Numbered from the stretch's first letter, positions 407-16,619 are shown. The stretch is 17,289 nt of DNA from Thermoproteota archaeon (GCA_029258835.1 JAPDJY010000044.1:1-17289), one strand, 5' to 3'. Program-made: numbers and translations. The notes: generated from the sequence alone by a model not told the origin.

Positions 407-571
407 CCGCCGAAGCCAGCTAGCCGTGTTAAATATTCGGTGACCCCTTGAACGCCCGGTGTCCCGCCGTCCCTAGACAGCTAACAGGTTCCCCGTCTTG
501 ACGCTTAAATAGGCGTGTTTGATGGGAAGGAGTTAAATAGTTGCCGAAAATGTTATGTTCGGGTGATTTCC

Positions 572-1912
572 GTGTGCGACACCCTTGTGGCTTTGGGTAA
601 TTCCACCGAGGATGGCTCCGTGGTCTTAGGGAAGAACAGTGACAGGGATCCTAACGAGGCCCAGGTTCTCAGGTACCTCCCTAGGATGGAGCACTCTGAG
701 GGTGAAACCGTTAAGTGCACTTACATTGAGATCCCTCAAGTCCCTAAAACCTACGAGGTAGTCCTCTCCTGCCCGTACTGGATCTGGGGGGCTGAAATGG
801 GAGTTAACGAGTTTGGCGTCGCCATAGGAAACGAAGCTGTCTGGTCTAAGGAGCCCTACAGGGAGACGGGGCTCCTCGGAATGGATCTCCTCAGGCTTGC
901 GCTTGAAAGGGCTGAAACGGCACGTAAAGCATTAGAGGTTATAGTCGAGCTGATTGAGAAGTATGGTCAGGATGGCTCCGCAAACCCGAACTTCCAGCTT
1001 ATGTACCACAACTCGTTCATAATCGCCGACCCACGTGAGGCGTGGGTTCTCGAGACCGCCGACAAGTACTGGGTGGCTGAGAAGGTTAGGGACGTGCGTT
1101 CCATCTCGAACTGTTACACGATAGGTGAAAGGTGGGATCTCGCCTCCCCCGGGCTCGTGGAGCACGCGGTCGAGAAGGGATGGTGCGAGTCCCGAAAGGA
1201 TTTCAACTTCGCAAGGTGCTACGGGGACCGTGAAATGGAGTCCATAGCGATGGCCGCCGGCAGGCTTGCAAGGTCGATGAATCTGCTCAGGGAGAACAAG
1301 GGTAGGATAAACGTCGAGTTAATGATGGACTTTCTGAGGGATCACGGGGGAGGAGGCTGGGACCCCTGGACGCAGGAGGAAGCGACGATCTGCATGCATG
1401 CGGGCCCCGGCGTTGTGAGCAACACCGCTGGAAGCTACGTCGGCCACTTGACAGACGAGGAACACTTACACTGGTTTGCCCCATCGTCCTCCCCATGCAT
1501 AAGCCTCTACATACCGGTATACATGGGAGGGGTTGGAGTCCCCGAGGAGCTGAGCAGGGGTGAGGGAAAGTATAGCGGGGATTCCCCATGGTGGGTTCAC
1601 GAGAAGCTCGCCAGAATGATCCACATGAAGGGGTATAGTCGCCTAGCTGGAGAGGTGAGAGCCGAGATCGAGTCCCTCCAGAAAAGGTTCCTAGACGAAG
1701 CCTACGGGGCGAGAAGGGAGTGTCTTGGGGCTTCAGGAGGAGGGAGAAGGAGAAAGCTGAGGGAGGTAACTGACAGATGCTTTAGGGCGGCTTACGAGAA
1801 GTACCGGGAGTGGGCTGGCAATGTTGCCAAGGTAGAAGCTAAGGAGAGGCCGCCGGAGAAGTACTACGAGTACTGGTACCTTCAGAACTACGCAGCCGGC
1901 ATTAACGTTTAA
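572..1912 (+). CDS. Peptidase C69 family dipeptidase / secernin-like Ntn hydrolase
   Basis: Start refined from 515 to GTG 572 (RBS GGGTGA at 561-566), giving M-CDT with an N-terminal nucleophile Cys; motifs GKNSDRDPNEAQ, WGAEMGVNEFGVAIGNEAV, GLLGMDLLRLALER, YHNSFIIAD, ISN, ICMH. Confidence 0.92.
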   Translation: MCDTLVALGNSTEDGSVVLGKNSDRDPNEAQVLRYLPRMEHSEGETVKCTYIEIPQVPKTYEVVLSCPYWIWGAEMGVNEFGVAIGNEAVWSKEPYRETGLLGMDLLRLALERAETARKALEVIVELIEKYGQDGSANPNFQLMYHNSFIIADPREAWVLETADKYWVAEKVRDVRSISNCYTIGERWDLASPGLVEHAVEKGWCESRKDFNFARCYGDREMESIAMAAGRLARSMNLLRENKGRINVELMMDFLRDHGGGGWDPWTQEEATICMHAGPGVVSNTAGSYVGHLTDEEHLHWFAPSSSPCISLYIPVYMGGVGVPEELSRGEGKYSGDSPWWVHEKLARMIHMKGYSRLAGEVRAEIESLQKRFLDEAYGARRECLGASGGGRRRKLREVTDRCFRAAYEKYREWAGNVAKVEAKERPPEKYYEYWYLQNYAAGINV

Positions 1913-2126
1913 CCTTCCTGAGGTATTTAAGGTAGAGGACGACTGTGAATCCTCCAAGGGAGAGGGTGGTTACCAGCGTTATGGTTGCGGCGGCTAGGGG
2001 GGTCAGGTAGCCAATCCTCCTTAACGCTACGGATGCTAGCGAGCCGAGGAGGGCGGAGAGGAGGACTATTATCAGGGCTCCGTAAACGTCGTACCTCGAA
2101 ATAAGCCTGAAGAACCATTCAATCAT
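1902..2126 (-). CDS. Small two-TM membrane protein, possible accessory subunit of the adjacent NSS-like transporter
   Basis: 74 aa with two hydrophobic segments and a basic C-terminus; its ATG overlaps the transporter TGA (ATGA at 2126-2123); 11-nt convergent overlap with the C69 gene. Confidence 0.7.
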   Translation of the reverse strand: MIEWFFRLISRYDVYGALIIVLLSALLGSLASVALRRIGYLTPLAAATITLVTTLSLGGFTVVLYLKYLRKVKR

Positions 2127-3598
2127 TTTTTACTTCGCCTCCTTTCGGCGGCCCATTTAAGGGTGAAGGCGGCGGTGAGACATGAGGAGAGCCAAGCCAG
2201 CGTCGAGCAGGTGAAAATGGCTGAAACATCTTGGGGTAGAAGAGGGGTGAGAGGGGTGAGGGGCTGTGCGAGAAGGTAGACGTGAGGTAACGCTGAAAGG
2301 ACGGTTAGGGTGATCGTGGCCAGCAGGGCTGGCGTGGCTGCGAACCGAAGGATTACGTCTAGGAGCCTCTTAACGCGTGCTGTGGCTTCCACGTTGAGCT
2401 GCTTGAGTGGGCGGCTCACGCCCATAACCCATCCGACTGCCACCACCTCGGCTAGCGCCACAAGGCAAATGTTGACTCCTGCAAACCACCAGTAAAGGAA
2501 CACCAGCTGGGTCCAAGGAGAAAAAAGGGTGAAGACTAGGCTTAGAGTTGCCGCAGGAGCAGCGGATAGCGTGATGGCGCCGCTCCTGCCAACCCCAAGC
2601 TCCTCCTTGATGGTGGAGGAGGCGGAGTCGAGGGCTCCTATAACCCCCATAGCAGACACTATGGTGAACACGCATAGTAAACAGTCGACGGCAACCCGTC
2701 CCAAGAGGCCGTGACGGGTGGACAGGGTGGCTGAGGATGCAAGCCACCAGGAGAAAACCCCTAACGGGCTTACTGGTGGGAGTGCGAAGCGTTCAGCGTC
2801 CACTAGGCCTGAAGCACCTCCACCGCTAAAGAACGCCATCGAGGAGAGGAAGACGAGGCCTATGACCGCTAGGGGGTAAAGGGTTACTTGGAAGCCGACG
2901 TCTTCCTCTCCTCTGGCATGGTGGTGGAGAACTCCCATGCCGGCCCCCACGCCCAGAACAGGGAGAGATAGAAGTAAGGGTAGGAAGCAGCCAGACCAGT
3001 ATGCCTCAACAACATAGTTTATTCCTGGGTTCACTCCTCCGGGTAAAGCCACGTTTAGGGCTGCTACGAGCATGAGGGAGGCTGCGGCAGCCAGCAGGGC
3101 AGCCCTAGTTAAAACCACTCTCTTAGACGGCTTAAGAACGAAGGCTAAGACTGCAGCCGTAGCCCAGAAGGAGGCGAAGCCCACGGCGCGGTGGAATCCC
3201 GAGGACCAGAGGAGAGAAACGGTGAGGTATGTTGAAGGGAGCATTGCAGGCCATGGAAGGGTGGAGATGAGGGATTGCCCCGCCAGCAGCAACCCGGCAA
3301 CGATTGATAGTAGAGAGGAAATCCATATGGCGTTCACCAGAGCAAGCCACCCTAGGATCTCCAAGCGGCGACTCACACTTCTTAACGACCCTGGCAGGGT
3401 TGGGGATAGAGGTGACAGGGAAGCCTCGGAGAAAGCCGACGGGAACCCCACCAGCAGCGTGAGGAGGAGGAATGAGAGCACTGCTACTACACCCCCGCTC
3501 AAAACGTTAAACTCGAAAAGCCAGAGCGAGACGGCCCCTAGGGTTAATGCCACGCCGATGCATGCTAAACGCATGGCAGCCACCCATAATACCTTCAA
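2123..3598 (-). CDS. Divergent sodium:neurotransmitter symporter (NSS/SNF, SLC6-like) family membrane protein
   Basis: 491 aa with about 11-12 hydrophobic segments; remnant NSS motifs SGG...LLVGFP...E.SL (TM2), SL..LGVGAG (TM6), ALAEVVAVGWVMG (TM10), LRFAATP (TM11); start codon uncertain (TTG). Confidence 0.7.
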   Translation of the reverse strand: MKVLWVAAMRLACIGVALTLGAVSLWLFEFNVLSGGVVAVLSFLLLTLLVGFPSAFSEASLSPLSPTLPGSLRSVSRRLEILGWLALVNAIWISSLLSIVAGLLLAGQSLISTLPWPAMLPSTYLTVSLLWSSGFHRAVGFASFWATAAVLAFVLKPSKRVVLTRAALLAAAASLMLVAALNVALPGGVNPGINYVVEAYWSGCFLPLLLSLPVLGVGAGMGVLHHHARGEEDVGFQVTLYPLAVIGLVFLSSMAFFSGGGASGLVDAERFALPPVSPLGVFSWWLASSATLSTRHGLLGRVAVDCLLCVFTIVSAMGVIGALDSASSTIKEELGVGRSGAITLSAAPAATLSLVFTLFSPWTQLVFLYWWFAGVNICLVALAEVVAVGWVMGVSRPLKQLNVEATARVKRLLDVILRFAATPALLATITLTVLSALPHVYLLAQPLTPLTPLLPQDVSAIFTCSTLAWLSSCLTAAFTLKWAAERRRSKK

Positions 3599-4010
3599 CC
3601 TAATCCTTGAAAAGGATAACTGTCAACCAGCACCTAAAGACGAAGCAAAAACCCACTTGGGAGCGTTCTGCACCGGTCCATTAGGCTTCTTTAAACCTGA
3701 CCACTCCACCTCATTAAGGATGAAACGGGAGCAAGAAATGTAAGCTTTAAAAACCATGCTTTCCCTGCTAGGCGAGAACATCTGGAAAACGGTGAAGTAC
3801 AGGTAAAATGGGAGAGAGGCTGATAACAGCCATCACCGATCCCGTTCCCGTTGCCACTGAGAACTTTAGGTAGGCTTTTCCGCTGAGCCTTCGAAGCAGG
3901 AGCCGACTGAAGTGGATCATCCACCCACCTCCAAGTGGAGTTTAAGTGGGCTGCCCGGCGGCTTCAAGGCTGAGTGCTGGCCCAAGATTCTCCAGCTTTT
4001 TTAAAGGCTG

Positions 4011-4861
4011 TTATGCCTCTCTTATGAGGGATTTAATTTCTTCCTTTGGTACGCTCTTGAGGAGCTCGAGCAGGAGGTGTGGTGACATCCTCATCGGCCC
4101 GTAGAGGATGGCTTGCATCTTGGGCATGTACATGTACGCTAAGCTCCTCTTCGATATCAGCACGTCCTCTAGTTCCAGGGATATGGAGTAGTCTCCCAGT
4201 TCAACCTTCACGTTCCTAGAATTCCAGGAGGAGGCAAACTCCACCGCGTTAACCCTGAACTCGGTCCATTGAGGCTGCTTATCCATGTAAAGGTAAGTGA
4301 AGTATCTTAGTATTCGGCTTCTCTTAGCAGGGATCTTCTTCCCGGTAATGGTGAGGATGTGACTTCCCTTTTCGCTTAGCCTACATGAAAGCTCGTTCTC
4401 CGTCTCAACCCAGTCGAACTCGGCTATGAACTTAGGGAAATTGTAATAGTCGACTCCGCCCCTCAGCGCGATCTCGGTGTCAACGGGGAGGTAGTGGATG
4501 TACGTGTGGAAGATGCCTCGCCTTAGCTGGCTTAGGACTCCGCCGGCGGACGGCTGCTTAATGATGATGGCTATGGCAAGCTCGTTGTATGGCTCTATGT
4601 CCGTGTTACGGTAGTTGAAGGCGGATATTGCAACCAGGCCGACTCCGGGAATTATGGTTGCAGGCTCGTAGACGTCTGGGAGCAGGCTCCTAAGCTTCCG
4701 AGCTGAAGCTGGTAAGGCGGCAACTATCGAGCGTGCATCATAGTAGAAAATCGGGATCTTCCCCTTTTCCCCGCTATGATCGCCTCCTGCTGCGTTACCC
4801 CCTCAAAGAAATCCTTCCTCTCCGCCTCCCTCCTCCTAATCCAGTACTCGGAAGTCTCCAT
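4011..4861 (-). pseudogene. Acetoacetate decarboxylase-like superfamily protein interrupted by one frameshift (about 283 aa if one base is restored)
   Basis: ATG 4861 (RBS GGTGGGG) reads METSEYW...DFFEGVTQQEAIIAG and stops at TAG 4726-4724. The -1 frame reads GEKGKIPIFYYD...FNYRNTDIEPYNELAIAI...YIHYLPVDTEIALRGGVDYYNFPKFIAEF and runs in frame into the listed ORF 4011-4286. The PYNE Glu and the FPK Schiff-base Lys are retained. Confidence 0.85.
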
Positions 4862-4911
4862 AAACCCCACCACAACGTTGCTCAAATTAAGCAATCTACC
4901 CCGTACGTTTC

Positions 4912-4925
4912 TATTTAAAAGTTTC
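4912..4925 (-). promoter_or_regulatory. Putative BRE/TATA promoter of the ADC-like gene
   Basis: Minus strand reads GAAAC-TTTTAAATA about 50 nt upstream of ATG 4861. Confidence 0.5.
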
Positions 4926-5282
4926 GGGAGAGGTTTATTAACTTATTAACTTATTTGGTGAGATGGGAAAATGAGAATTATTTTTAGTTGTACTCCTGCT
5001 TAAACCCTCCTTCGCGAATACCGTAGCAAATCGGAGAGCAACGAAGGCAACACCAGAACGATGACTTCAATAGAAGATGGGTGTTAATTTAGTCGTTACA
5101 GAGAGGGCAGGAAGGACGAGGGAGCGAGATTCCAGATAGCAGCAGGTACGGGTTCGCCACCACAGAAACCCTTGCAAGCTCTGCATACCGCCAAACGTTA
5201 CACTAGCGATATTTGACAGAGCCGGCGACCGAAAAGTTTACAAAATAATTTCTGCTATTTCCTTTTAGGGATGGATGGTAGA

Positions 5283-5627
5283 ATGGTGAAGCTGGAGATT
5301 TGGTTTGACAGGAAAGCATACTACCGCCTGCCAAGATGTGGACGCCTTGAAGCCGCAGGAAACAGGCGCACCCTTGAGGGTTTACGTCCATACACCTACT
5401 TCACCATAACGTGCGACTGGTACATGCAGGTTTTACAGTATGAAAAGAGGAATTGCTGCACCGTCAGGTACTATATCGTTAGGGACGGGGATGACTACTA
5501 TCTCATACTCTACTCATCGGGTTGCAGCAGCCACCCTGGAATCCTTGACTACCAAAGCCTAGAACGCGAGAAAGTTGAGGAGATCCTGGAGGCTTCAAGG
5601 CGGGGAAGCCAGCCGAAAATAAGGTAG
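5283..5627 (+). CDS. Hypothetical protein (Tyr/Cys-rich, about 114 aa)
   Basis: Open frame from 5271 or 5283, lying between other genes, with an AT-rich upstream region and T-tracts after the stop (5644-5662); no family recognised. Confidence 0.6.
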   Translation: MVKLEIWFDRKAYYRLPRCGRLEAAGNRRTLEGLRPYTYFTITCDWYMQVLQYEKRNCCTVRYYIVRDGDDYYLILYSSGCSSHPGILDYQSLEREKVEEILEASRRGSQPKIR

Positions 5628-5884
5628 GGAAGAAGGGCTCACCTTTTCTTAACGATATTTTTCACACTCATAAATCCTCATGCTCCTAAAGGATACCCAA
5701 AACTTTAAGATCACACTCCGGGTTCGGCTTCTAAAGGAGTGGAGACGTCAGATTTCAGCATCATTTAAATGTGGAGATACGCCGTAAACTATGAAAAGGG
5801 GGTTAGAGTTGGTTGTGCGTCTGGCTCGGCCGCATTAGATCCAATGCTTACTAAAGGAGTGGACTCCGTTTTCAAGCTTCGTGT

Positions 5885-5914
5885 CTTCACCCATGTGAAG
5901 CGAAAAAATTTAAA
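5885..5914 (+). promoter_or_regulatory. Inverted repeat CTTCAC-N4-GTGAAG abutting the BRE/TATA of the dehydrogenase gene
   Basis: 5885-5900 CTTCACccatGTGAAG directly followed by CGAAAAAA-TTTAAA (5901-5914). Confidence 0.5.
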
Positions 5915-5953
5915 GTTCGGACGCTTTGGACATTACGGGGTGCCAGCTTGCCT

Positions 5954-7117
5954 ATGGATGTGTTGAGGGACGATATTGGCCCGGAGTATGTCGTGGAGCT
6001 GTATGATCCTGCAACAGGCACCAGAGGGTTTCTGGTGATCGATACGATGGTTTACGGCGTCGCCGCCGGCGGCGTCAGGATGCTTCCAGACGTGACGGTA
6101 GGGGAGGTATCCCATTTGGCTAGGGCTATGACCTACAAGTTTGCAACGTACGATATGCCCATCGGAGGGGCGAAGGGGGGAATCGTAGCTGACCCGTCGT
6201 CCCCGGACAGGGATAGGCACGTGGGTGCATTTGCACGCCTCGTAGCCCCATTCTTAAAACAGCTCGTTTACATTCCTGGAGCAGACATGGGAACCAGCGA
6301 CAGGGACGTGGCGGTGATGTGCGAGGTTGCTGGAATGGAGCAGTTTAAGCCGAGTGGTTTAACCCTTAAGGTTAAGGATGGAATGCCCCTGGAGGATCAC
6401 CTCACCGGCTACGGTGTGGTGGTAGCTGCCAAGACGGCGGCTGAGCTAGTCGACGTGAGCATTGAGGGGGCTAGCGTCGCGGTAGAAGGGTTCGGGAAGG
6501 TTGGAGGAGGGGTTGCAAGGTACATGGAGAAGCTTGGGGCGAGGGTTGTGGCCATATCAACCATTCACGGAGCGATATATAACCCTAAAGGGTTGGACGT
6601 GGAGGGGCTTCTGGAGGCAAGGAGGAAGCACGGTGACAGGGTGGTGCTCGAGTATAAGTACGCGGAGAGAATAGCTAAGGAGAAGATCTTCACCCTCCCC
6701 GTTGACGTGCTGGTTCCCGGTGCGAGGCCATACGTGATAGACAAGAATAATGCTGGAGACGTGAAGGCTAAGATTATCTCTCCGGGTGCGAACATTCCGA
6801 CAACTCTGGAGGCTGAGGAGATCCTGTCCAGGAAGGGTGTTCTCTCGATCCCCGACTTCGTGGCGAACGCTGGGGGGATAATAGCAGCCACCATGGACAG
6901 GATGAGCGCCACGGAGGAGAAGGCCTTCGAAGCGGTGGAGTCGAACATATCCAGCGTGACGAGGAGGATAATATCCCAGGCGATGGAAGAGAAAACTTAC
7001 CCTCTGGCGGTAGCCGTCAGAATGGCTAGGGAGAAGGTTAAGCGTGAAATGGAAAAGAAGGAAAGGATGGCGGCTGAGGAGATAGAAAAGAAGGTAAGGG
7101 AGAAGTTTGGAGTCTAA
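5954..7117 (+). CDS. Glu/Leu/Phe/Val family amino acid dehydrogenase, probably not glutamate-specific
   Basis: GGVRM, LARAMTYKFA, GGAKGGI (catalytic Lys), GADMGT, TGYG, Rossmann GFGKVG, GAN, PDFVANAGG; start is TTG 5948 or ATG 5954 after RBS GGGGTG. Confidence 0.93.
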   Translation: MDVLRDDIGPEYVVELYDPATGTRGFLVIDTMVYGVAAGGVRMLPDVTVGEVSHLARAMTYKFATYDMPIGGAKGGIVADPSSPDRDRHVGAFARLVAPFLKQLVYIPGADMGTSDRDVAVMCEVAGMEQFKPSGLTLKVKDGMPLEDHLTGYGVVVAAKTAAELVDVSIEGASVAVEGFGKVGGGVARYMEKLGARVVAISTIHGAIYNPKGLDVEGLLEARRKHGDRVVLEYKYAERIAKEKIFTLPVDVLVPGARPYVIDKNNAGDVKAKIISPGANIPTTLEAEEILSRKGVLSIPDFVANAGGIIAATMDRMSATEEKAFEAVESNISSVTRRIISQAMEEKTYPLAVAVRMAREKVKREMEKKERMAAEEIEKKVREKFGV

Positions 7118-7187
7118 GGGTTCCACGTGGCGGTCGCTCGGGAACCAGCCAAGTTCCTTTATTATCTCCTTTATGTCCGAATAATCA

Positions 7188-7695
7188 CTAGTCAACGTAT
7201 GGGCAGTTTAAGGCGTTGACCCGCGCTTCCATCCGGAAAGCTTCTGGAACTTCGCAGGAGACTTAATGTTTACGTCATAGAATATCTTCCCGGCTTCAAC
7301 CAGCGCTTCGAACGCGTCGCCCGTGACGACGCCATTTAGCAGCCAAGTCTTTCTATGACGACCTTATTCGCCGTGAACGCCGCACTCCTCGACCCTGACC
7401 CTCTTTCGCCCTGAAGTTCATGCCCCGCCTTAAGCATGCCATAAATAGCACAGTGCCCTTTGGGGTCCTTCTAAGTTTCCTCGAAACGTAGTCTACGAGC
7501 CCGTCGATCGTCTCCACGTTCTCCGGAGGCTTTTCACCAGTCTTCTCTGCTTCAAACGCTAAACCATACTTCACAACCAGCTTTTCGTAGACCGGGCCGT
7601 AAACACCCCTAACCTCCATGGCGGCCTCTCTAGCAGCTGAAATCAGCAGGTTTACGTCAGGATCCTTCGTGAACTTGTATTCGTCAAACGCTCAT
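7188..7695 (-). pseudogene. Degraded gene remnant with about four frameshifts; product unknown (C-terminal CPY.D motif is reminiscent of V4R-like domains)
   Basis: RBS GGTGAG + ATG 7695 stops after 3 codons. Protein-like segments in successive frames: AFDEYKFTKDPDVNLLISAAREAAMEVRGVYGPVYEKL... / PKGHCAIYGMLKAGHELQG...AAFTANKVVIE / LLNGVVTGDAFEALVEAGKIFYDVNIK / RVNALNCPYVD*. Confidence 0.6.
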
Positions 7696-7812
7696 TCCAG
7701 CTCACCCTGAATAAGAGGGCTTCCGGAAATTTAATTTTCACGTTTAAACCATGTGAATTACCTTCGCAAAACGGTATTTCTTTTTACGTTCTTAGTCGGG
7801 GAAAACTTTTAG

Positions 7813-7827
7813 AGAAAGAATTAAATA
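7813..7827 (+). promoter_or_regulatory. Putative BRE/TATA promoter of BKACE-1
   Basis: AGAAAGAA-TTAAATA about 45 nt upstream of ATG 7870. Confidence 0.5.
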
Positions 7828-7869
7828 GTTCATTAAGCTATTCTTCAACCGGTGAATGGAGGAGGAATT

Positions 7870-8847
7870 ATGGCGTTCTTAAGGGCTTGGAGGGAAAAGC
7901 TAATCATCACTTGTGCTTTAACAGGGTCTGCAACGATCCCTTCTCAGACGCCGTATCTCCCCATCACGCCAGACCAGATAGCTGAAGAGGCTTACAGGGC
8001 TTGGGAGGCTGGAGCAGCCGTCGTCCACGTCCACGTTAGGGATCCCAAGACCGGGATGCCGACCGCCGACCTTAACGTCTGGAGGGAGACCTTAACCAAG
8101 ATAAAGGAGAAATGTGACGTGGTGGTCTGCTGCACCACGGGCGGGGGGATGGGGATGACCGCAGAGCAGAGGATAGCCGTCGTACCAGAGTTCGAGCCTG
8201 AAATGTGCTCCTGCAACACTGAAAGCATGAACTTCACCTTGTTCCCCCTAGCGGAGAGGATCAAAGAGTGGAAGACGGAGTGGGAGAAGCCCCTGCTGGA
8301 GGCCAGCAAGGACTTCGTCTTCAAGAACACGTTCGCCGACTTGGAAACGTTCCTTAAGACAATGTACGAGCACAATGTGAAGCCAGAGTTTGAAATCTAC
8401 GGTACGAATGGTATATGGAACCTTGGAGCGTACGTCCAGTTTGGATGGGCTAAGTTCCCGCTTCACATGCAGTTCGTGCTGGGCGTCCTAGGAGGGACGG
8501 GGCCAACAGTGGAGAACTTGCTTCACCTTAAGCACACAGCTGACATGATGTTTGGACCTCAAAACTACACGTGGTCCATTATAGGCGTAGGATACCCCGC
8601 CCAGTTCCACCTTGGAGCGGTAGCCATAACCATGGGTGGCCACGTCAGGGTTGGACTGGAGGACAACATATACGTGAAGTATAAGATAAAAGATGGGCAA
8701 GTGGTCGACAGGGTTCTGGCTAAGAGCAACGCCGAACTGGTCGAGAAGATCGTGAAGATAGCGGACGAGCTAGGTCGAGAAATAGCGACGCCAGCTGATG
8801 CGAGGAGAATGCTGGGCTTAAAGGGAATGGACAAAGTAAAATTCTAA
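7870..8847 (+). CDS. Beta-keto acid cleavage enzyme (BKACE, DUF849; 3-keto-5-aminohexanoate cleavage protein family), paralog 1
   Basis: KLIITCALTG, AGAAVVHVHVRD (Zn HxH), TTGG, SMNF, KPEFE, GGHVRVGLED, SNAELV, REIATP..AR; ATG 7870 follows GGAGGAGG. Confidence 0.95.
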   Translation: MAFLRAWREKLIITCALTGSATIPSQTPYLPITPDQIAEEAYRAWEAGAAVVHVHVRDPKTGMPTADLNVWRETLTKIKEKCDVVVCCTTGGGMGMTAEQRIAVVPEFEPEMCSCNTESMNFTLFPLAERIKEWKTEWEKPLLEASKDFVFKNTFADLETFLKTMYEHNVKPEFEIYGTNGIWNLGAYVQFGWAKFPLHMQFVLGVLGGTGPTVENLLHLKHTADMMFGPQNYTWSIIGVGYPAQFHLGAVAITMGGHVRVGLEDNIYVKYKIKDGQVVDRVLAKSNAELVEKIVKIADELGREIATPADARRMLGLKGMDKVKF

Positions 8848-8857
8848 ATCTCCCTGC

Positions 8858-8879
8858 TTTTCACCCACTTTTTTACTTT
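8858..8879 (+). terminator. Oligo-T archaeal terminator after BKACE-1
   Basis: TTTT...TTTTTT..TTT tracts within about 30 nt of the stop. Confidence 0.5.
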
Positions 8880-9150
8880 CCTACACTAGTTGAAGCATTT
8901 GAAGGCGTATAAAAGTTATAGAGTTAAGGTGACTAGCTGAGGAGAGGGGTCGGCAGGGCTTAACCCGGGTTTTCATCTTCTTTCCCTCGGTTTGTTGGCG
9001 ACACGCGGCTTCCTTGGTTATGATCGTTTAACGCTTAGTTATGAGGGGGCGAATCCGGAGACGTAGAAGAGGGTTTATTGAGATAATGTTTATATTTTCT
9101 GATTTCCTTACTTACTCCTTAAACTGGAACCGGGTTTGAGGGGAGTGGAG

Positions 9151-10041
9151 TTGGCTGAGAAGAAGGAGAAGCTGATTATAACCGCCGCCGTCACGGGTGG
9201 CGACTTTGTTTCTAAGTGGTTGACGCCATACGTTCCGTCGACTGTTGACGAGATCGTTGAGGAAGTTGTCCGTGTGAGGAAGGCTGGCGCTTCCATCGTC
9301 CACCTTCACGCTAAGGATCCCGAAACAGGAGCGCCGGCAAAGGATCCCAACCCTGTCCTGAAGGAGTACGTTGAAAGAATTAGGGAGAGCGAGGCGTCAG
9401 ACATAATAATCAACATTACTACGGGTGGGGGGAGGTTCGTTGAACCAGAGAAGCTGGACGAGATCATGAGGGAGAGAACCACTTTCGGACAGGAGATGTG
9501 CTCCCTCAACATGGGCTCCCTTAACCTTTGGGAGGACATGGGAATACCCCAGCTGAGAGACATGATCTTTGGCAACCCGATCAACACGATCGTCAGGTGG
9601 GCGGGTTACATGTACGAGAACGGCGTCAAGCCAGAGCTTGAAATATACGACACAGGCATGATCAACGCTGCCAAGAGGCTGGTTGCGGAGGGGGCGCTCA
9701 AAGAGCCGCTCCACATCCAGTTCGTTATGTTCGACGGGTTGTCCTGTATGTCGCCCAACCTTAAAACGCTCCTTTACTGCGTCGAGTCTATACCGAGCAA
9801 CTGGACATGGTCTGTTTGCGCTCCGGGCAGGTACGAGATGGAGATGGCTGCAGCAGCCATAATCCTTGGAGGACACGTCAGGGTAGGCATGGAGGACAAC
9901 ATCTACCTTGAGAAAGGGGTTCTGGCTAAGAGCAACGCCGAACTGGTCGAGAAGGTGGTTAGGATAGCTAAGGAGCTTCAGAGAGAAATAGCGACGCCGG
10001 ATGAAGCAAGGAAAATTCTAGGGTTAAAGCCAAGAGAGTAA
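9151..10041 (+). CDS. Beta-keto acid cleavage enzyme (BKACE, DUF849), paralog 2
   Basis: KLIITAAVTG, AGASIVHLHAKD, TTGG, SLNMGSLN, KPELEIYD, GGHVRVGMED, SNAELV, REIATPDEAR; start TTG 9151 or 9136; TTTATAT TATA-like box at 9088-9094. Confidence 0.95.
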   Translation: MAEKKEKLIITAAVTGGDFVSKWLTPYVPSTVDEIVEEVVRVRKAGASIVHLHAKDPETGAPAKDPNPVLKEYVERIRESEASDIIINITTGGGRFVEPEKLDEIMRERTTFGQEMCSLNMGSLNLWEDMGIPQLRDMIFGNPINTIVRWAGYMYENGVKPELEIYDTGMINAAKRLVAEGALKEPLHIQFVMFDGLSCMSPNLKTLLYCVESIPSNWTWSVCAPGRYEMEMAAAAIILGGHVRVGMEDNIYLEKGVLAKSNAELVEKVVRIAKELQREIATPDEARKILGLKPRE

Positions 10042-10050
10042 GCAAACCAC

Positions 10051-10104
10051 TCTCGTTTTTCTTCTTTCCGAGTGAAAAAAAATGAGAGGAGCAAAACAAA
10101 AAAT
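10051..10104. terminator. Bidirectional oligo-T terminator region between convergent BKACE-2 and CoA-transferase genes
   Basis: T-tracts on + (10056-10067) and A-tracts, i.e. T-tracts on -, at 10075-10082 and 10093-10104. Confidence 0.55.
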
Positions 10105-10108
10105 AGGT

Positions 10109-10882
10109 TTATTTTTGTTTTCCAATAACTATCCACGCCTCTCTTATCCCTCTGAGGATCTCCAGTTCTCTTGGTGACGGCTCCTCCGTCGTCTCCACCT
10201 TGTCTGCAACTAGGAGCTCGAAGCTGGTGTTTTTCATCACGTCTTCAACCGTTACGCCCGGGTGGACGGAGATCAGCCTCATCCTCTTGGTTTCCTCGTC
10301 GAAGTCGTAGACCCCCAGCTGGGTTATCACCCTGTATGGCCCGGAGCCTTCCGGCAGCCCTGCTTTCTCCCTAGCTCCGGGGCCTGAAAGGTATCCGGGC
10401 GTGGTTATGAAGTCGACTTTCTCCACGAACCTCTGAGGGTCCTGCCTCATTATGATGATCGTCCTCCAGGCTAGGGAGCCTCCATCGTTGGCTCCGCCGC
10501 TTCCTGGAAGCCTAACCTTTGGGTTGTCATGCTCCCCTATCACCGTAGTGTTCAGGTTCCCGTACATGTCTATTTGAGCCCCTCCGAGGAAAGCGTAGTC
10601 GAAGTATCCTAGCTGTGCGCATGACATCACATAGTCCATGCTTGTAGCCATCAAAGCCTTGTAGAATGTCCTCGAGTCGCCAACCGATATCGGGAGGGCG
10701 GGGACCTCGGGTCCAAGTCCGCCAGCCTCGAAGAAGATGACCATGTTTGGTGCGTGAAGCCTCTGGGCGAGCATGGCGGCGAGTATCGGCAATCCCGTCC
10801 CGACGAAGACTATTTTCTTATCTTCAAGAAATCTGGCTGCGACACATGCCATAAGCTCGGTCATATTATACGGCTTAGACAT
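10109..10882 (-). CDS. CoA-transferase subunit B, glutaconate CoA-transferase (GctB)/3-oxoacid CoA-transferase-like
   Basis: VFVGTGLP, IFFEAGG (catalytic Glu position), FLGGAQIDMYGNLN, RLPGSGGAND, RFVEKVDFITTPG, GPYRVIT.LGV, SVHPGVT. Confidence 0.92.
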   Translation of the reverse strand: MSKPYNMTELMACVAARFLEDKKIVFVGTGLPILAAMLAQRLHAPNMVIFFEAGGLGPEVPALPISVGDSRTFYKALMATSMDYVMSCAQLGYFDYAFLGGAQIDMYGNLNTTVIGEHDNPKVRLPGSGGANDGGSLAWRTIIIMRQDPQRFVEKVDFITTPGYLSGPGAREKAGLPEGSGPYRVITQLGVYDFDEETKRMRLISVHPGVTVEDVMKNTSFELLVADKVETTEEPSPRELEILRGIREAWIVIGKQK

Positions 10883-10898
10883 CTTAACCTCATCCCCC

Positions 10899-11924
10899 TT
10901 ACTTTTTCTTTTTCTTCTCGGTCCAGGGAGCCTTCAGGGGGGCTCTAAGCTGCTCAAGCTTCTTGAGGTAGTTCAGTTTCTTCAGTCCACCTATCTTCTC
11001 AAGGTACTCTTCGAAGCTGTCAACGCTGTAAACGTACTTTTCGAAGTACTGGTCTACGCCTTCAGGGGTTCGCGACAGTTCAAGCCACTCGGCGATGTGC
11101 TCCTCGTCGAAGTAGTACATGTATGGCATGTTGCATGGATGGGAACCGTACGGGATCTCAACCACGGCGTCAACCAGGAAGTATGGTATGACCGTCCTCC
11201 AAGGCTCCCTTCTTATCTCCTCGTTCGGGATAATCTCCTCCGTGGTTACTATGAGCCTCTTCGCAGCCCTGGCAAGCTCGTAGTCCTCTATTGTTATCCC
11301 GTCTATCTGGCAGTTCCCATACACGTCGCACCTGTGAACGTGCATAAAGACGACGTCAGGGTAGCATGCCGGAAGCAGGCATATCGGCTTACCGGAGAAC
11401 GGGTCTTCGACCACCTTCGCCGAACTCCACCTGAAGGTGTCGGTTCCGAGCATGACCCTTGTCGGTATGAATGGAAGCCCCATGGCTGCAGCCTTGAAGC
11501 GCCACTGGAAGCCCGCATTACTCCACTCGGATACGACCTTGGCCTTCCCCTCCTCAACCATCCTCCTAGACGCCGGGGAGAGGCCCCTAAGCTCGTGTCC
11601 GAAACAGTAGGCTACTTCAAGCTTGTCTACAACCCCTGAAGCTACGAGAACGTCGACATCGTGGACGGCAGTCTTACCTGCGAGGGTTATGTGCCTCTTC
11701 CTCTGCCTTATCATTTCGTATATGGCGGCCATCGAGATCCTTATGTGTCCGAAGCCTCCCATTGCAAGGTAGCATCCGTCATATACAAACTTTGAAACGG
11801 CCTCCTTCAGGTCCATGGTCTTGTCGACCATGTCCCTCCTCTTGTTCTCCCTAACCCACCTTCTAGCCTCGTCGTGGTCCATCCAAGCCAGCAGCTCTCC
11901 TTTTCCCTCTTCCAAAACCTTCAT
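10899..11924 (-). CDS. CoA-transferase subunit A, GctA-like
   Basis: V.DG..LAMGGF, EWSNA..WRFKAAAMGLPF.P, DPFSG, PDV.F.HV.RCD.YGN, A.AAKRLIVT.EEI, VIP..LVDAVV..P.GSHP; ATG 11924 follows RBS GGGGGA. Confidence 0.92.
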   Translation of the reverse strand: MKVLEEGKGELLAWMDHDEARRWVRENKRRDMVDKTMDLKEAVSKFVYDGCYLAMGGFGHIRISMAAIYEMIRQRKRHITLAGKTAVHDVDVLVASGVVDKLEVAYCFGHELRGLSPASRRMVEEGKAKVVSEWSNAGFQWRFKAAAMGLPFIPTRVMLGTDTFRWSSAKVVEDPFSGKPICLLPACYPDVVFMHVHRCDVYGNCQIDGITIEDYELARAAKRLIVTTEEIIPNEEIRREPWRTVIPYFLVDAVVEIPYGSHPCNMPYMYYFDEEHIAEWLELSRTPEGVDQYFEKYVYSVDSFEEYLEKIGGLKKLNYLKKLEQLRAPLKAPWTEKKKKK

Positions 11925-12048
11925 TAAATCCCCCCAAGAACGGTGCAAATACGGTTGAGTTCCAGCAAAAATATAAGATTTATGGTTCCGTAGACTTTTG
12001 GCTCAATCTATGGTGATGCTCGTGTGCGCTAAAAGGTGAGTATGGGGT

Positions 12049-13602
12049 TCAGAACATTTCACCCTCCTTAACCCAGCTGGGGAACCACCTGTAGTATTCT
12101 GGCGGGTTGGCTTCCTTCAGCCCCTTGTATGTCGCCTTGGCTAGGGCTATCCTTCCAGCCCTGTCCCTGTAGATCTTAACCAGCCCCTTCTCCTCTAACC
12201 CTGTTAGGGCCTCCTCAAGCTTGTCCATGCTTGCAGGGTCCACCCTGAGCTCGAAGGCTAGGTCTTCGACCGTCATGAATAGTCCGGGGTTAGCCCTATA
12301 GTCCTCTGCGAGAACTTTAAGCACGTTCTCCTCGTTGACGGGCGTTCCTTCAGGCATTAACGGTTCAGCCTTGTAGTATGGTATTGGGACGCCTAGCTCC
12401 TTGTGGATCCTCCTCTTAGGAGGCTCCAGCTCCTTGGCTAGCAGCCTGAGGCCGAACCGTGCTATAAGGAGGCGTAGAACCTCGTTTGTTCCTGCCCCAA
12501 TCTCCATGATCTTAGCGCTCCTCATAGCATACTCTAACGGGTAGAACTTTGTCAGGCCGTCTCCTCCCATAACCTGTATCATGTCTAAGCATGCCTTGGT
12601 GACTGCCTCGGACCCATAAACCTTAGCGGCTGTAGCCTCTATTAGAGGCTGCTCCCCCCGGTCTACCAGGTAGGCGGCGTAGTAGGTTAGGAGCCTGTAC
12701 GTTTTCCAGCTGGCTATGACGTCGGCCAGCTTGATCATGTTCGTTTGGAACGTGGCTGTGGGCCTGTTAAATTGTATTCTCCTCTGGCTGTGGAAGACTG
12801 CGTAGGTTATGAGATCTCTGAACGTTCCAACTATGCCTGCAGCCCCCAGAGTCCTTTCGAAGTTGAGGCCGCTGATCATTATGTTCCATCCGTCCCCCTC
12901 CTCTCCAAGCCTGTTCTCAGCGGGAACTCTAACCTCGTCGAAGTTAAGGTATCCGTTTCTGACCCCGTCCCATCCGCTCAGCTCATTTATTTTTTCAACG
13001 CTGAACCCGGGGGTTCCCTTCTCCACTATGAACGCGCTAAGGTGGCGGCGGCTCGCAATGTCCTTAGGGTCGTCGCTTGTCCTAGCGTAAACCATGTATA
13101 TGTCCGCTAGCCCCGTGTTGCTTATAAACCGCTTTTTCCCGAGTATGACGTACTCGTCCCCTTCCCTCCTAGCGGTTGTCTCAACTCCACCAGCATCCGA
13201 GCCCACGAAGGGCTCGGTTAGCGTTATAGCCCCCATAAGCTTTCCCTTAGCTATGCCCGGAAGCCACCTCTCCTTCTGCTCCTCATTCCCGAAATGGGCG
13301 ATCTGGTGTGTCCCACCAAACATCGTCGTGCTGAAGGCCACGCATACGCTTCCAAGGGGAGTGGTTAACTCGGCAACTATGCAGCAAGCTGTTACGCCGT
13401 AGCGTGGGCCAAGCCCACCATACTCCTCAGGTATTATGGTTCCGAACCATCCTCTCCCACCCATCTCGTTGTATATGTCCCATGGAAACTCCTTTTTCCA
13501 GGTGGCTTCAGCCGCACGTGGGGCCTTTTCCTTAGCAAACTCCTCAACCTCATCAGCAAGTTTTCTCTGCTCCTCATTCCACCAAGGATACTTCTCAACC
13601 AT
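12049..13602 (-). CDS. Acyl-CoA dehydrogenase (isovaleryl-CoA-dehydrogenase-type active site) with a C-terminal winged-helix-like extension
   Basis: PEEYGGLG, GNEEQKERWLP, LTEP..GSDA, GKKRFISN, GEEGDGW, GLNFER, RIQFNRP, IQVMGGDG, EIGAGTNE, plus about 125 extra C-terminal residues; ATG 13602 follows GGAGGGG (ORF track start 13674). Confidence 0.93.
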   Translation of the reverse strand: MVEKYPWWNEEQRKLADEVEEFAKEKAPRAAEATWKKEFPWDIYNEMGGRGWFGTIIPEEYGGLGPRYGVTACCIVAELTTPLGSVCVAFSTTMFGGTHQIAHFGNEEQKERWLPGIAKGKLMGAITLTEPFVGSDAGGVETTARREGDEYVILGKKRFISNTGLADIYMVYARTSDDPKDIASRRHLSAFIVEKGTPGFSVEKINELSGWDGVRNGYLNFDEVRVPAENRLGEEGDGWNIMISGLNFERTLGAAGIVGTFRDLITYAVFHSQRRIQFNRPTATFQTNMIKLADVIASWKTYRLLTYYAAYLVDRGEQPLIEATAAKVYGSEAVTKACLDMIQVMGGDGLTKFYPLEYAMRSAKIMEIGAGTNEVLRLLIARFGLRLLAKELEPPKRRIHKELGVPIPYYKAEPLMPEGTPVNEENVLKVLAEDYRANPGLFMTVEDLAFELRVDPASMDKLEEALTGLEEKGLVKIYRDRAGRIALAKATYKGLKEANPPEYYRWFPSWVKEGEMF

Positions 13603-13740
13603 CCCATTTCCCCTCCAACTAGGACCCAGAAGACGAAAAACAGAAGATACATTTAGAGATATAACGTTTTTCATTGTTCCTCTCTGTAGGAGAGGCCATG
13701 CAGAAATAAAGGTAAAGTAAATTTATGATGAAAATGATGA

Positions 13741-13770
13741 GGTGGTTTTCCATTAGGCGGTTTTCCATTA
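13741..13770. repeat. Tandem 15-bp direct repeat GG(T/C)GGTTTTCCATTA x2
   Basis: 13741-13755 ggtggttttccatta and 13756-13770 ggcggttttccatta (14/15 identical), preceded by ATGATGA x2 (13725-13731, 13734-13740). Confidence 0.85.
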
Positions 13771-13838: not shown

Positions 13839-15767
13839 TTAAGGGGAAGAAGGGATGATATCCTTTACGAGGGAGTATATTTTTTCGGGTTTTACGTCCG
13901 GCAGCCTTACGTACCTTGCTTGGGCATGCTCTACTATTGTTTGAATGTAGCTGGGCTTCCAAGGGTCAGGGCGCGTATCAACCACTAGGGTTGAGGCTTC
14001 GAGCTCCCTCAGAGCTCTTGAAAGGCGTTCAAGTTCCACCCTCACGTTTGACCCTGGGCTGAGCGGGACGTTTGCCCGTCCATCCGTTATGAGGACTACT
14101 ATCGGTTTAAGCTCACGCTTAGACAGCCTCTGCTTTCTGATCAACTCCACGGCTTGGAGAAGGGCTGACGAGAGGGGGGTTTTCCCTCCGGTTGGAAGCT
14201 CGCCTAGGAGGCGCACGGCAAGGTCGAGGTTGGATGTTGGAGGAAGCACCACCTGAGCGCTGCCACCTCTGAATGATATGAAGGCAACTTGATCCCTGTT
14301 AACGTATGCTTCGCGGAGAAGGGATAGGGCTGCGCCCTTAGCTGCCTCCATCCTCCTCAGTACTGCCATGGAGCCGCTGGCATCGACCACGAGAACTATG
14401 AGAGATGAAGCCCTAGTGAACCTCACCTTCTCTCTTAAGTCCTCGGGCTTAACGGTTAGCATGCCTCCAGTCCATCCTCCCCTAGCCGCCGCGGCTCTTA
14501 GGGTTGCGTCGATCGCTATGTCCCTCGGCGTTCCCCGTGGAATGGTACTGGCAACGTAGGCTCCCTTACCGTTTCCAGCTTTAACCCTCAGCCTCCTCCC
14601 GGTTCTAGGAGTCCCCCTCGCCTTCTCACTAAGGTTGAAGTCTAGGGAGTAGGAGGGGTCGGCTTCAAACATTCTCTCACCCGTAGGCTGCCCCTCTCCA
14701 CTTTCCCCCTCTTCAACCCTTCCAATCGATTCCCTAGCCTCCTCCAGGAGGCTTCTTATCTGCTGTGGCTCTAGGCGTGGCTGCTCGAAGGGGTGCCTCC
14801 TCACCCTGTGAGGGAGCGCTAGGCTCATGGCCTCCTCGACGTCTTGCTCGCTGACGCTTACGCGCCCGTCTAGGGCTGCTATGGTTTTAGCCGCCTTCAC
14901 TATGGCTATCTCCGCCCTGCTGCTCGTCTTCAGGCTGGCGCAGACGCTTGCAACCGTTAACAGGAGTTCATCGCTCATGGTGACTTTAGGCAGTGTTTCC
15001 ATAGCATTGGCAATCCTCTCCTTAAGGTCTTCCTGGCTATCCCTGTATTTTTCGATGAAGGTGGAGGGGTCTGCTTCGAAGGCCTCCACTCTCTTTACTA
15101 TCTCAACTCTGAGGTGGGGGTCTTCAAGGTTTTCCACGTCGACTTGAAGCCCGAACCTGTCAAGAAGCTGCGGCCTGAGCTCCCCCTCCTCCGGGTTCAT
15201 CGTGCCGACGAGTATGAACTTCGCCGGGTGGGACACCGATACCCCCTCGCGCTCAACCACGTTGACGCCGCTCGCCGCCGCATCCAGCAGGATGTCTGCC
15301 ACGTAGTCGTCGAGCAAGTTTACCTCGTCGACGTAGAGGATCCCCCTGTTCGCCTCAGCCAGCAGCCCAGGCTCGAGGGCCTTTAACCCCTCCTTCAAGG
15401 CTCTTTCTATGTCGAGTGTTCCAGCAACCCTGTCAACCGTTGCGTTGAGAGGTAAATCCACTATCCTAACCTTTCTCTTTACGGATGGCAGGGATCCCTC
15501 CTTCTCGTACCTTTCAAAGCAGTTGTCGCACATCTCCGCTGGGTTATGGGGGTTACAGTTGAAGGGGCACCCCTCAACAACCTCTATTTCTGGGAGGAGC
15601 TCCGCCAGCCCCCTGACCGCGGTTGACTTACCTGTCCCCTTCTCACCCCTTATCAGGACGCCGCCTATCCTGGGGTTGACGGCGTTTAAAACCAGCGCCT
15701 TCTTCATAGGCTCCTGGTCCACTATCGCTGTGAAGGGGTAGAGGAACCTTCTCACGTGGTGGGGCAA
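13839..15767 (-). CDS. chlD: Magnesium/cobalt chelatase subunit D/I-like protein (AAA+ ATPase fused to VWA domain)
   Basis: YPFTAIV.Q, Walker [15 protein letters not shown]...[46 protein letters not shown]; [27 protein letters not shown]; TTG start after GGTGA. Confidence 0.9.
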
Positions 15768-16237: not shown

Positions 16238-16619
16238 TACGGGTGCGTGGATAGAGTTTTTCACTGGAAGTAGGAGTGGGGAGAAGCTTATGAACCTCAT
16301 CAAGGGGGTGGACGTCTATGTTCCAGCGTTAGTGGTGGCTGAAATATTTTATGTTCTTTGCAGGAGGGTTGGGGAGGAGCGTGCGCTGGAAATCGTTAAG
16401 GCGTTCATTGGCTCCAACGTGAAGGTTGTCAGCGGGGTAGACCTATTCGTTGAGGCGGGCAGGGTGAAGTGTAAGGTTCCCATCGCTTTAGCCGACTGCA
16501 GCGTGCTCGCCTTAGCGTCGATGGTGAACGGCAGAGCCGTCTTCTGGAGAAGGGAGAAAGAGATTAAAGAAGCGGAGGAGAAGGGGAGGATTACGGTGAA
16601 GGTTGAGTATCTCGAGTGA
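16218..16619 (+). CDS. vapC: VapC PIN-domain ribonuclease toxin
   Basis: VVVDTGAW, VVAEIFYVL, IALADC; 133 aa; immediately downstream of a small antitoxin-like gene. Confidence 0.9.
   Translation: MRRVVVDTGAWIEFFTGSRSGEKLMNLIKGVDVYVPALVVAEIFYVLCRRVGEERALEIVKAFIGSNVKVVSGVDLFVEAGRVKCKVPIALADCSVLALASMVNGRAVFWRREKEIKEAEEKGRITVKVEYLE

Follow-up and report, generated by a model that had tools for sequence, protein, structure and literature searches.

We report that a gene on the minus strand of a 17,289-nucleotide stretch of DNA from a Thermoproteota archaeon (GCA_029258835.1 JAPDJY010000044.1:1-17289; this whole stretch is hereafter called the window) encodes an acyl-CoA dehydrogenase (ACAD) extended at its C terminus by a winged helix (wH). 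The extension is conserved in a clade of archaeal ACADs, and on balance we think it somewhat probable, from structure predictions read together with the conservation pattern, that it is an enzyme-bound subunit clamping across the ACAD dimer, over the face through which electrons exit and on which the electron-transferring flavoprotein (ETF) docks. The gene and its parts are as follows:

12049..13602, minus strand: probable true coding span of the ACAD-wH gene, 517 aa plus stop (open reading frame list, translation, database copy, GGAGG)
12454..13602, minus strand: ACAD core with N-terminal, middle beta and C-terminal domains (Pfam E 1e-22 to 1e-34; alignments to 4o5m and 5ol2)
12334..12453, minus strand: linker and beta-hairpin, extension residues 1-40, with the conserved motif P-x-R-x-I-H-x-x-L-G-V-P (conservation; AlphaFold2 strands 13-16 and 23-26)
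12112..12333, minus strand: winged-helix core, extension residues 41-114, comprising helices H1 and H2, an acidic helix H3, a basic-tipped wing and K-A-T-Y-x-G-L
12052..12111, minus strand: aromatic C-terminal tail, P-x-E-Y-Y-x-W-F-P-x-W ... F, in which Y121, W123, P125 and W127 are invariant

The acyl-CoA dehydrogenase core

The longest open reading frame (ORF; 12049-13674, minus strand) gives 541 aa on translation. Its internal M25 (ATG at 13602) is likely to be the true start, because GGAGG lies upstream of this ATG and because the resulting 517 aa match the database copy of the protein (P0002) and the lengths of its homologs (506-517 aa). A Pfam scan of the 541-aa ORF found the three ACAD domains (PF02771, 99.8 bits; PF02770, 78.7 bits; PF00441, 120.3 bits), all over their cut-offs, within residues 33-407; with these domains and the catalytic Glu, the protein falls within the ACAD superfamily. 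Past residue 407 nothing exceeded the Pfam threshold, the only matches being sub-threshold ones to MarR, MarR_2, Rrf2, TFIIE_alpha and DUF6432 (12-16 bits).

The catalytic layout is that of isovaleryl-CoA dehydrogenase (IVD). The Glu on helix G (E249, in GLNFER) is invariant across the family and corresponds, in the alignment to the IVD 4o5m, to the Glu of SGLDYER, which we take to be the catalytic base of that enzyme, while an Ala (in IGAGTNE) occupies the position of Glu376 in medium-chain acyl-CoA dehydrogenase (MCAD), the segment EIGAGTNE being aligned to EIGAGTSE of IVD and to the YEGT of Bcd and 5lnx. The IVDs 4o5m and 1ivh (E 2e-68 and 3e-59, respectively) share with the ACAD-wH protein the three-domain core, the helix-G Glu and the small residue at the Glu376 site (EIGAGT in both); they differ in that they end after the last helix at ~390 aa, have neither the wH module nor the PWW N-terminus, and use ETF. 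Judged by these motifs the core is of IVD-type catalytic architecture, a description that leaves the substrate aside, and in an NCBIfam scan no equivalog, those of IVD included, reached its cut-off for the ACAD-wH protein.

A conserved winged-helix extension

About 134 residues follow the core and are divided, in the AlphaFold2 models, into the linker hairpin, the wH and the aromatic tail. Their identity among more than 100 homologs (50-60%) is close to that of the full-length proteins, and 16 positions are invariant, namely R14, L45, Y52, N55, P56, G57, M60, Y109, G111, L112, A115, P117, Y121, W123, P125 and W127 (numbering from the first residue of P0001:408-541), with a nearly invariant C-terminal Phe. 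Because of this conservation, together with a confident wH model and the winged-helix matches described below, the extension is not a product of chance.

Modelled alone from a 51-row alignment, the module reached a mean predicted local distance difference test score (pLDDT) of 87 and a predicted template-modelling score (pTM) of 0.79, with a pLDDT of 87-97 in the winged-helix core; the full-length monomer gave 92 and 0.87, respectively. The predicted topology runs from the beta-hairpin through H1, a short strand, H2, H3 and a two-stranded wing to two short helices. Foldseek, queried with this model, returned MarR-family regulators (E 1e-4, probability 1.00, TM ~0.4 over 76-90 columns), and a Foldseek-independent structure search (VIA) gave Z 10.2 to the putative DNA-binding protein 2obp from Ralstonia eutropha, and Z 8-8.8 alike for MarRs and for kleisin winged helices (Scc1, ScpA). 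In a sequence-profile search, the PDB entry matching best was the winged helix of CdvB/ESCRT-III (2xvc; E 0.0026), and a feature search of the ESM Atlas with the module scored at best 0.85, which is under the trustworthy range, and pointed to no named family. From the models and these matches, the extension has a winged-helix fold.

A reading of the DNA made earlier from its sequence only (the sequence-only reading) had placed an ACAD with a C-terminal winged-helix-like domain here, and the Pfam core, the module model and the Foldseek and VIA matches bear this out; all the motifs it quoted occur in the translation, and the span it gave, 12049-12430, corresponds to residues 415-541 and the stop. 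It was also right that the extension is unlike canonical ACADs of 380-400 aa and unlike the helical C-terminal domain of AidB. Extensions of 130-200 aa are likewise found at the C termini of VLCAD, ACAD9 and Bacillus FadE-type enzymes (3b96, 8phe, 3owa, 2z1q); those are alpha-helical and replace a second dimer or target membranes. Their alignments end at about residues 391-418 of the ACAD-wH protein, and VLCAD/ACAD9-type enzymes were not among the matches listed in the PDB search with the module profile.

Fused and split forms of the ACAD-wH clade

The fusion is family-wide: with residues 405-541 as the query, 491 proteins of 297-947 aa were matched at E<=0.001, and the full-length matches listed are ACADs of 506-528 aa, from Bathyarchaeia/Bathyarchaeota where the source names the organism. 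The genome of origin holds three ACAD-wH paralogs, the other two being 58% and 50% identical to the present one over the full length, alongside four ordinary ACADs. Matches to the module occurred in 80 of 301 sampled genomes of the phylum, at most nine of them in any one genome. An exhaustive search of 1.8 billion representatives with a profile hidden Markov model gave 122 clusters in all, whose long members are ACAD fusions and whose short members are mostly fragments starting with ACAD C-terminal residues; the clusters also hold a small family of standalone wHs and at least one match that looks unrelated (P0231, a weak match to an 820-aa repeat protein).

The standalone form was traced in the phylum scan, which showed frames of ~100 aa matching the wH core only (profile positions 34-108). 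In all six genomes checked (L027-L032), a wH gene of 90-103 aa lies directly upstream, on the same strand, of an ACAD gene of 410-416 aa, with a gap of 13 nt in L028 and in L032. These split-form ACADs carry the marks of the clade, that is, the PWW N-terminus, NG(W/K)KRF, (I/V)EK(I/L/V)N, the helix-G Glu, RRRVQFG (KRRVQFG in L031), GDG with D348, and E203/I205/N206, and their last 27 aa form a tail alignable with the start of the linker in the fused proteins. The standalone wHs have isoelectric points (pI) of 5.3-7.0 and, at position 109, still have an aromatic residue (Trp), followed by G-L. The operon, which is conserved in relatives (for example L028:1950-6234, minus strand), consists of the wH gene, the ACAD gene (410 aa) and genes resembling those for enoyl-CoA hydratase, SCP2 and acyl-CoA synthetase, the last three assigned from their N-terminal sequences alone.

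Taken together, the sequence comparisons make the module a hallmark of a distinct archaeal ACAD clade, present either in fusion or as two adjacent genes, wH first and ACAD second. The occurrence of fused and split forms in permuted order (a Rosetta-stone arrangement) points to a physical or functional partnership between module and enzyme; the split form, taken by itself, also fits an operon autoregulator. Full-text searches of the literature found no paper describing an ACAD-winged-helix fusion, and a CASP13 paper that mentions both an ACAD and a winged helix proved unrelated.

Predicted docking of the module across the dimer

We predicted the complex of two copies of the core (residues 1-383) with one module, as three chains from our own alignments, and ran three controls alongside. 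The complex scored 0.84 and the best of the three controls 0.00; in the calibration, 58 of 80 solved complexes and 2 of 110 mismatched pairs attained this mark, counts which come from single-chain pairs and are only roughly valid for a three-chain, split-polypeptide job run on our own alignments. The runs agreed in at least 84% of contacts, with a partner pLDDT of at least 88. Among the PDB entries matched by the module profile there was no similar solved complex.

In the model the module lies on both subunits, contacting residues 131-132, 141-142, 154-158, 163-165 and 195-222 in the beta-domain of one and helix A (24-36) and the C-domain segments 262-296 and 348-355 of the other. On the module side the predicted interface is made up of residues 2-28 (linker and hairpin), 52, 55-61, four wing positions, 108-113, 118, 121-128 and 132-134, the linker hairpin touching helix A of the partner subunit and the aromatic tail touching beta-domain residues 203-205; H2 and H3 have no listed contacts. 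The conservation pattern agrees with this modelled interface: 11 of the module's 16 invariant residues lie within it, together with 19 of the 41 positions that are at least 90% conserved (Fisher P = 0.03). We propose that the module would reach across the dimer as an enzyme-bound subunit, its invariant aromatics wedged between one subunit's beta-domain and the C-domain loops of its neighbour. Packing as an oligomerisation element, which the sequence-only reading had itself set against its DNA-binding proposal, is what the models indicate.

Predicted overlap with the ETF-docking site

In the Bcd of C. difficile, the region of F155, E198, E210, Y340, T343, D345 and Y346 contacts Etf domain II and the alpha-FAD; F155 bridges the two flavins, and E198 and D345 form salt bridges to EtfA R243, their mutation drastically lowering activity (Demmer et al. 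2017, PMC5691135). Alignment of the ACAD-wH protein to this Bcd (5ol2_C) gave the following equivalences:

Bcd F155: F159 in the ACAD-wH protein
Bcd E198: N206
Bcd E210: Y218
Bcd Y340: D348
Bcd T343: T351
Bcd D345: F353
Bcd Y346: Y354

The modelled interface (154-158, 199-207, 218 and 348-355) includes or flanks the equivalents of Bcd F155, E198, E210, Y340, D345 and Y346, and the contacted core residues also align with those lying over the FAD of Bcd. The Bcd surface made of F155, E198 and E210 of one subunit and Y340-Y346 of the other corresponds, in other words, to the surface modelled under the wH. The occupant differs: in Bcd-EtfAB it is a separate, swinging, flavodoxin-like FAD domain, while in the ACAD-wH clade it would be a wH that is covalently attached or encoded in the operon, with no predicted cofactor.

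Substitutions are also found at the residues that pair with ETF. The Bcd-type contact residues E198, Y340 and D345 are not retained, and the clade conserves N206, D348 and F353 in their place. Sequence alone, with no model involved, sets apart 23 core positions that the clade conserves and that differ in each of the four ordinary ACADs encoded in this genome, among them K156, E203, I205, N206, R274, D348 and F353, and seven of the 23 fall in the modelled interface (P = 0.036). Two of the ordinary ACAD genes (C24:12336-13451 and C26:12505-13623) lie directly upstream of etfBA, and in both of their products position 348 is Tyr, position 353 is acidic and the base is the MCAD-type YEGT; the C24 product also retains Glu at 206. 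These operons (C24:12336-15096 and C26:12505-15248; L009-L014) run from an MCAD-type ACAD through etfB to etfA. None of the three ACAD-wH genes of this genome adjoins etf.

Placed in this way, the module would cap or gate the electron-exit face, and the capping would change which redox partner reaches the flavin; the module probably also helps to hold FAD and the dimer together. The last of these roles might be the whole of its function, as a purely structural clamp that makes the dimer or tetramer, and the binding of FAD, more stable (for instance for thermostability, or where flavin is low), with ETF still the acceptor after a small displacement. We regard this as unlikely. It agrees with an interface that spans both subunits and includes R274, R275 and residues 348-355 of the 346-355 loop, and with the presence of Etf in almost all ACAD-wH genomes; R274, R275 and the 346-355 loop presumably hold the FAD adenosine of the neighbouring subunit, as in ACAD structures. 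On the other hand, ordinary paralogs of the same organism manage without a clamp, and the ETF salt-bridge and Tyr residues are specifically replaced in the clade, which suggests altered partner recognition beyond stabilisation alone.

A further-reaching proposal, which we hold to be doubtful, is that the ACAD-wH class does not pass its electrons to ETF in the usual manner. The module would then sit on the landing pad of the ETF FAD domain, with Y52, Y109, Y121, W123 and W127 over the strand of F159, and the exposed acidic H2-H3 face would serve as a dock or relay for another acceptor.

The winged helix as a possible DNA reader

The sequence-only reading had suggested that the protein may be a trigger enzyme, whose wH would bind DNA, for example at a tandem repeat upstream of the gene, and so couple acyl-CoA or redox state to transcription. 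PutA, which couples redox state to transcription through a DNA-binding domain of its own, is a parallel. The fold is indeed nearest to MarR-type transcription factors, and the wH core superposes on those of ZitR (5yi1), MepR and ST1710 (Foldseek E 1e-4 to 1e-3, VIA Z 7-8.6), so that by fold the module would be at home among them (Foldseek probability 1.00 and E 1e-4; VIA Z 8-8.6). The overlap is, however, restricted to the wH core, the MarR dimerisation helices having no counterpart in the module, and the Pfam models for MarR (12.0 bits vs. 24.6) and MarR_2 (13.7 vs. 27) stay under their gathering scores, in line with 12-16 bits against thresholds of 25-30 for these and the other helix-turn-helix models.

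The equivalent of the DNA-reading helix argues against such a role. H3, equivalent to module residues 73-88, has Asp or Glu at positions 73, 75, 76, 77, 80 and 87 in 17-51 of 51 sequences, where Lys and Arg are rare, and its net charge over 113 homologs varies between -8 and 0 (median -3), never being positive; in MarR regulators it is basic or polar. None of the 16 invariant module residues lies on H3, and mean conservation is lowest in H2/H3 (0.60-0.61), as against 0.91 for residues 55-61 and 0.81 for residues 108-117. The median pI of the module over the 113 homologs is 5.9, and that of the standalone forms is likewise low. The wing tip (96, 98 and 99), by contrast, is conserved and is basic in 44-50 of the 51 sequences, which together with the position of H2 and H3 outside the modelled interface speaks for a regulator, as does the place of the wH gene at the head of the split operon.

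The upstream repeat named in the sequence-only reading is real:

13741..13770, minus strand: tandem 15-nt direct repeat (TAATGGAAAACC[G/A]CC x2), upstream of a TATA-like AT-rich stretch

This repeat lies before the ACAD-wH gene and is perfectly phased, with a third half-copy (TTAGGCGGT) 22 nt away. Its position upstream of a promoter-like region would suit a regulator; neither the 15-nt repeat nor its 12-nt core, however, was found upstream of the two paralogs, and the genome-wide matches look like chance. The repeat may be a site for some regulator, and we found no link between it and the wH.

The nearest sequence match in the PDB, 2xvc, is moreover a protein-binding wH. The winged helices of CdvB and of the kleisins Scc1 and ScpA (1w1w, 6qpq, 4i99) dock onto partner proteins and not onto DNA, and those of the kleisins match the module as well as MarRs do (Z 8.0-8.8); their partners are unrelated to ACADs, and the likeness carries no evidence of common descent beyond the fold. 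With an acidic and poorly conserved H3, with the most conserved residues in the predicted interface of the ACAD dimer, and with no repeat at the paralogs, we consider a DNA-binding trigger enzyme improbable, and an enzyme-bound subunit, as opposed to a DNA reader, the best reading of the models. Of the sequence-only reading, the ACAD fused to a genuine wH fold stands, and the regulatory, DNA-binding or AidB-like function is not supported.

Several points nevertheless weigh against an enzyme-bound subunit over the ETF site: (i) the docking site comes from structure prediction only, (ii) the enrichment statistics are modest (P ~0.03) and are drawn from related sequences, (iii) the model lists no contacts for H2 and H3, and the tip of the wing is both basic and conserved, so that contact with nucleic acid or another ligand is sterically possible, (iv) a small wH gene heading an operon is the classic layout of an autoregulator, (v) ETF_alpha is present in 241 of the 301 genomes of the phylum sample, nearly all ACAD-wH carriers included, which gives no genome-level sign of independence from ETF, the exceptions with ACAD-wH and without ETF_alpha including G008 (99% complete) and G034 (94%), and (vi) no conserved neighbouring gene at four homolog loci and two paralog loci hints at an alternative acceptor.

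The alkA gene and the genomic neighbourhood

As the sequence-only reading had remarked, an AlkA gene lies about 3 kb away: it starts at 16616 on the plus strand, 2.9 kb from the start of the ACAD gene. The same reading had also suggested a DNA-protective flavoprotein like E. coli AidB, which is also an ACAD-fold flavoprotein with an extra C-terminal domain; JGI, too, calls homologs 'AidB-like', though this is a generic ACAD name. We consider the suggestion very improbable. The AidB model NF008594 scores 18.9 bits against a cut-off of 545, a negligible similarity that falls far short of orthology. The fourth domain of AidB, which binds DNA, is helical, and the extension models instead as a wH with a beta wing and an acidic H3. 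The alkA gene is on the opposite strand, past a gene of 642 aa, and its proximity is not conserved: the only other AlkA homolog of the genome (C44) is near neither ACAD-wH paralog, and no AlkA-type gene was recorded alongside the four homolog loci elsewhere, where L018 has just a weak HhH-GPD match ~6 kb downstream.

Comparison of the four homolog loci, which are on long contigs, with the two paralog loci revealed no partner gene common to all. A gene of the isocitrate/isopropylmalate dehydrogenase family (Iso_dh) adjoins the ACAD-wH gene at two of them (L015:10200-11435 and L018:5746-6873), in otherwise unrelated contexts, an adjacency that may point to the substrate or have arisen by chance.

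In the window, the next gene upstream of the ACAD-wH gene (13839-15767), also on the minus strand, encodes the 642-aa protein, a ChlI/MoxR-like AAA+ and VWA fusion with an architecture like that of Mg-chelatase ChlD. Just downstream of the ACAD-wH gene lies a two-subunit CoA-transferase, which belongs to a compact set at 5948-11948 together with a Glu/Leu/Phe/Val dehydrogenase and two tandem paralogs of the beta-keto acid cleavage enzyme (BKACE); a C69 peptidase and an SNF-like transporter are encoded at 515-3598. Judged by these gene assignments, the peptidase, transporter, dehydrogenase, BKACE, CoA-transferase and ACAD look like a cluster for amino-acid catabolism or fermentation. The ~2 kb at 3750-5900 contain short ORFs only (4011-4286, minus, 91 aa; 5271-5627, plus, 118 aa) and have a lower GC content (0.48-0.50).

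Implications

Annotation based on domains could mislabel ACAD-wH enzymes as regulators. A truncated homolog of 341 aa (P0118) bears the JGI label 'DNA-binding transcriptional ArsR family regulator', which indicates that automatic annotation can already misread the module in this way. If the module is indeed an enzyme-bound subunit, it would be one more clear example of how a 'DNA-binding' fold can come to serve as an enzyme subunit. To our knowledge, the only well-understood routes by which electrons leave an ACAD are ETF or, in oxidases, oxygen, and a wH subunit over the ETF site would, if confirmed, mean a different wiring of beta-oxidation or fermentation in a clade that is widespread in sediment archaea (Bathyarchaeia where named), whose presumed growth substrates are amino acids and fatty acids.

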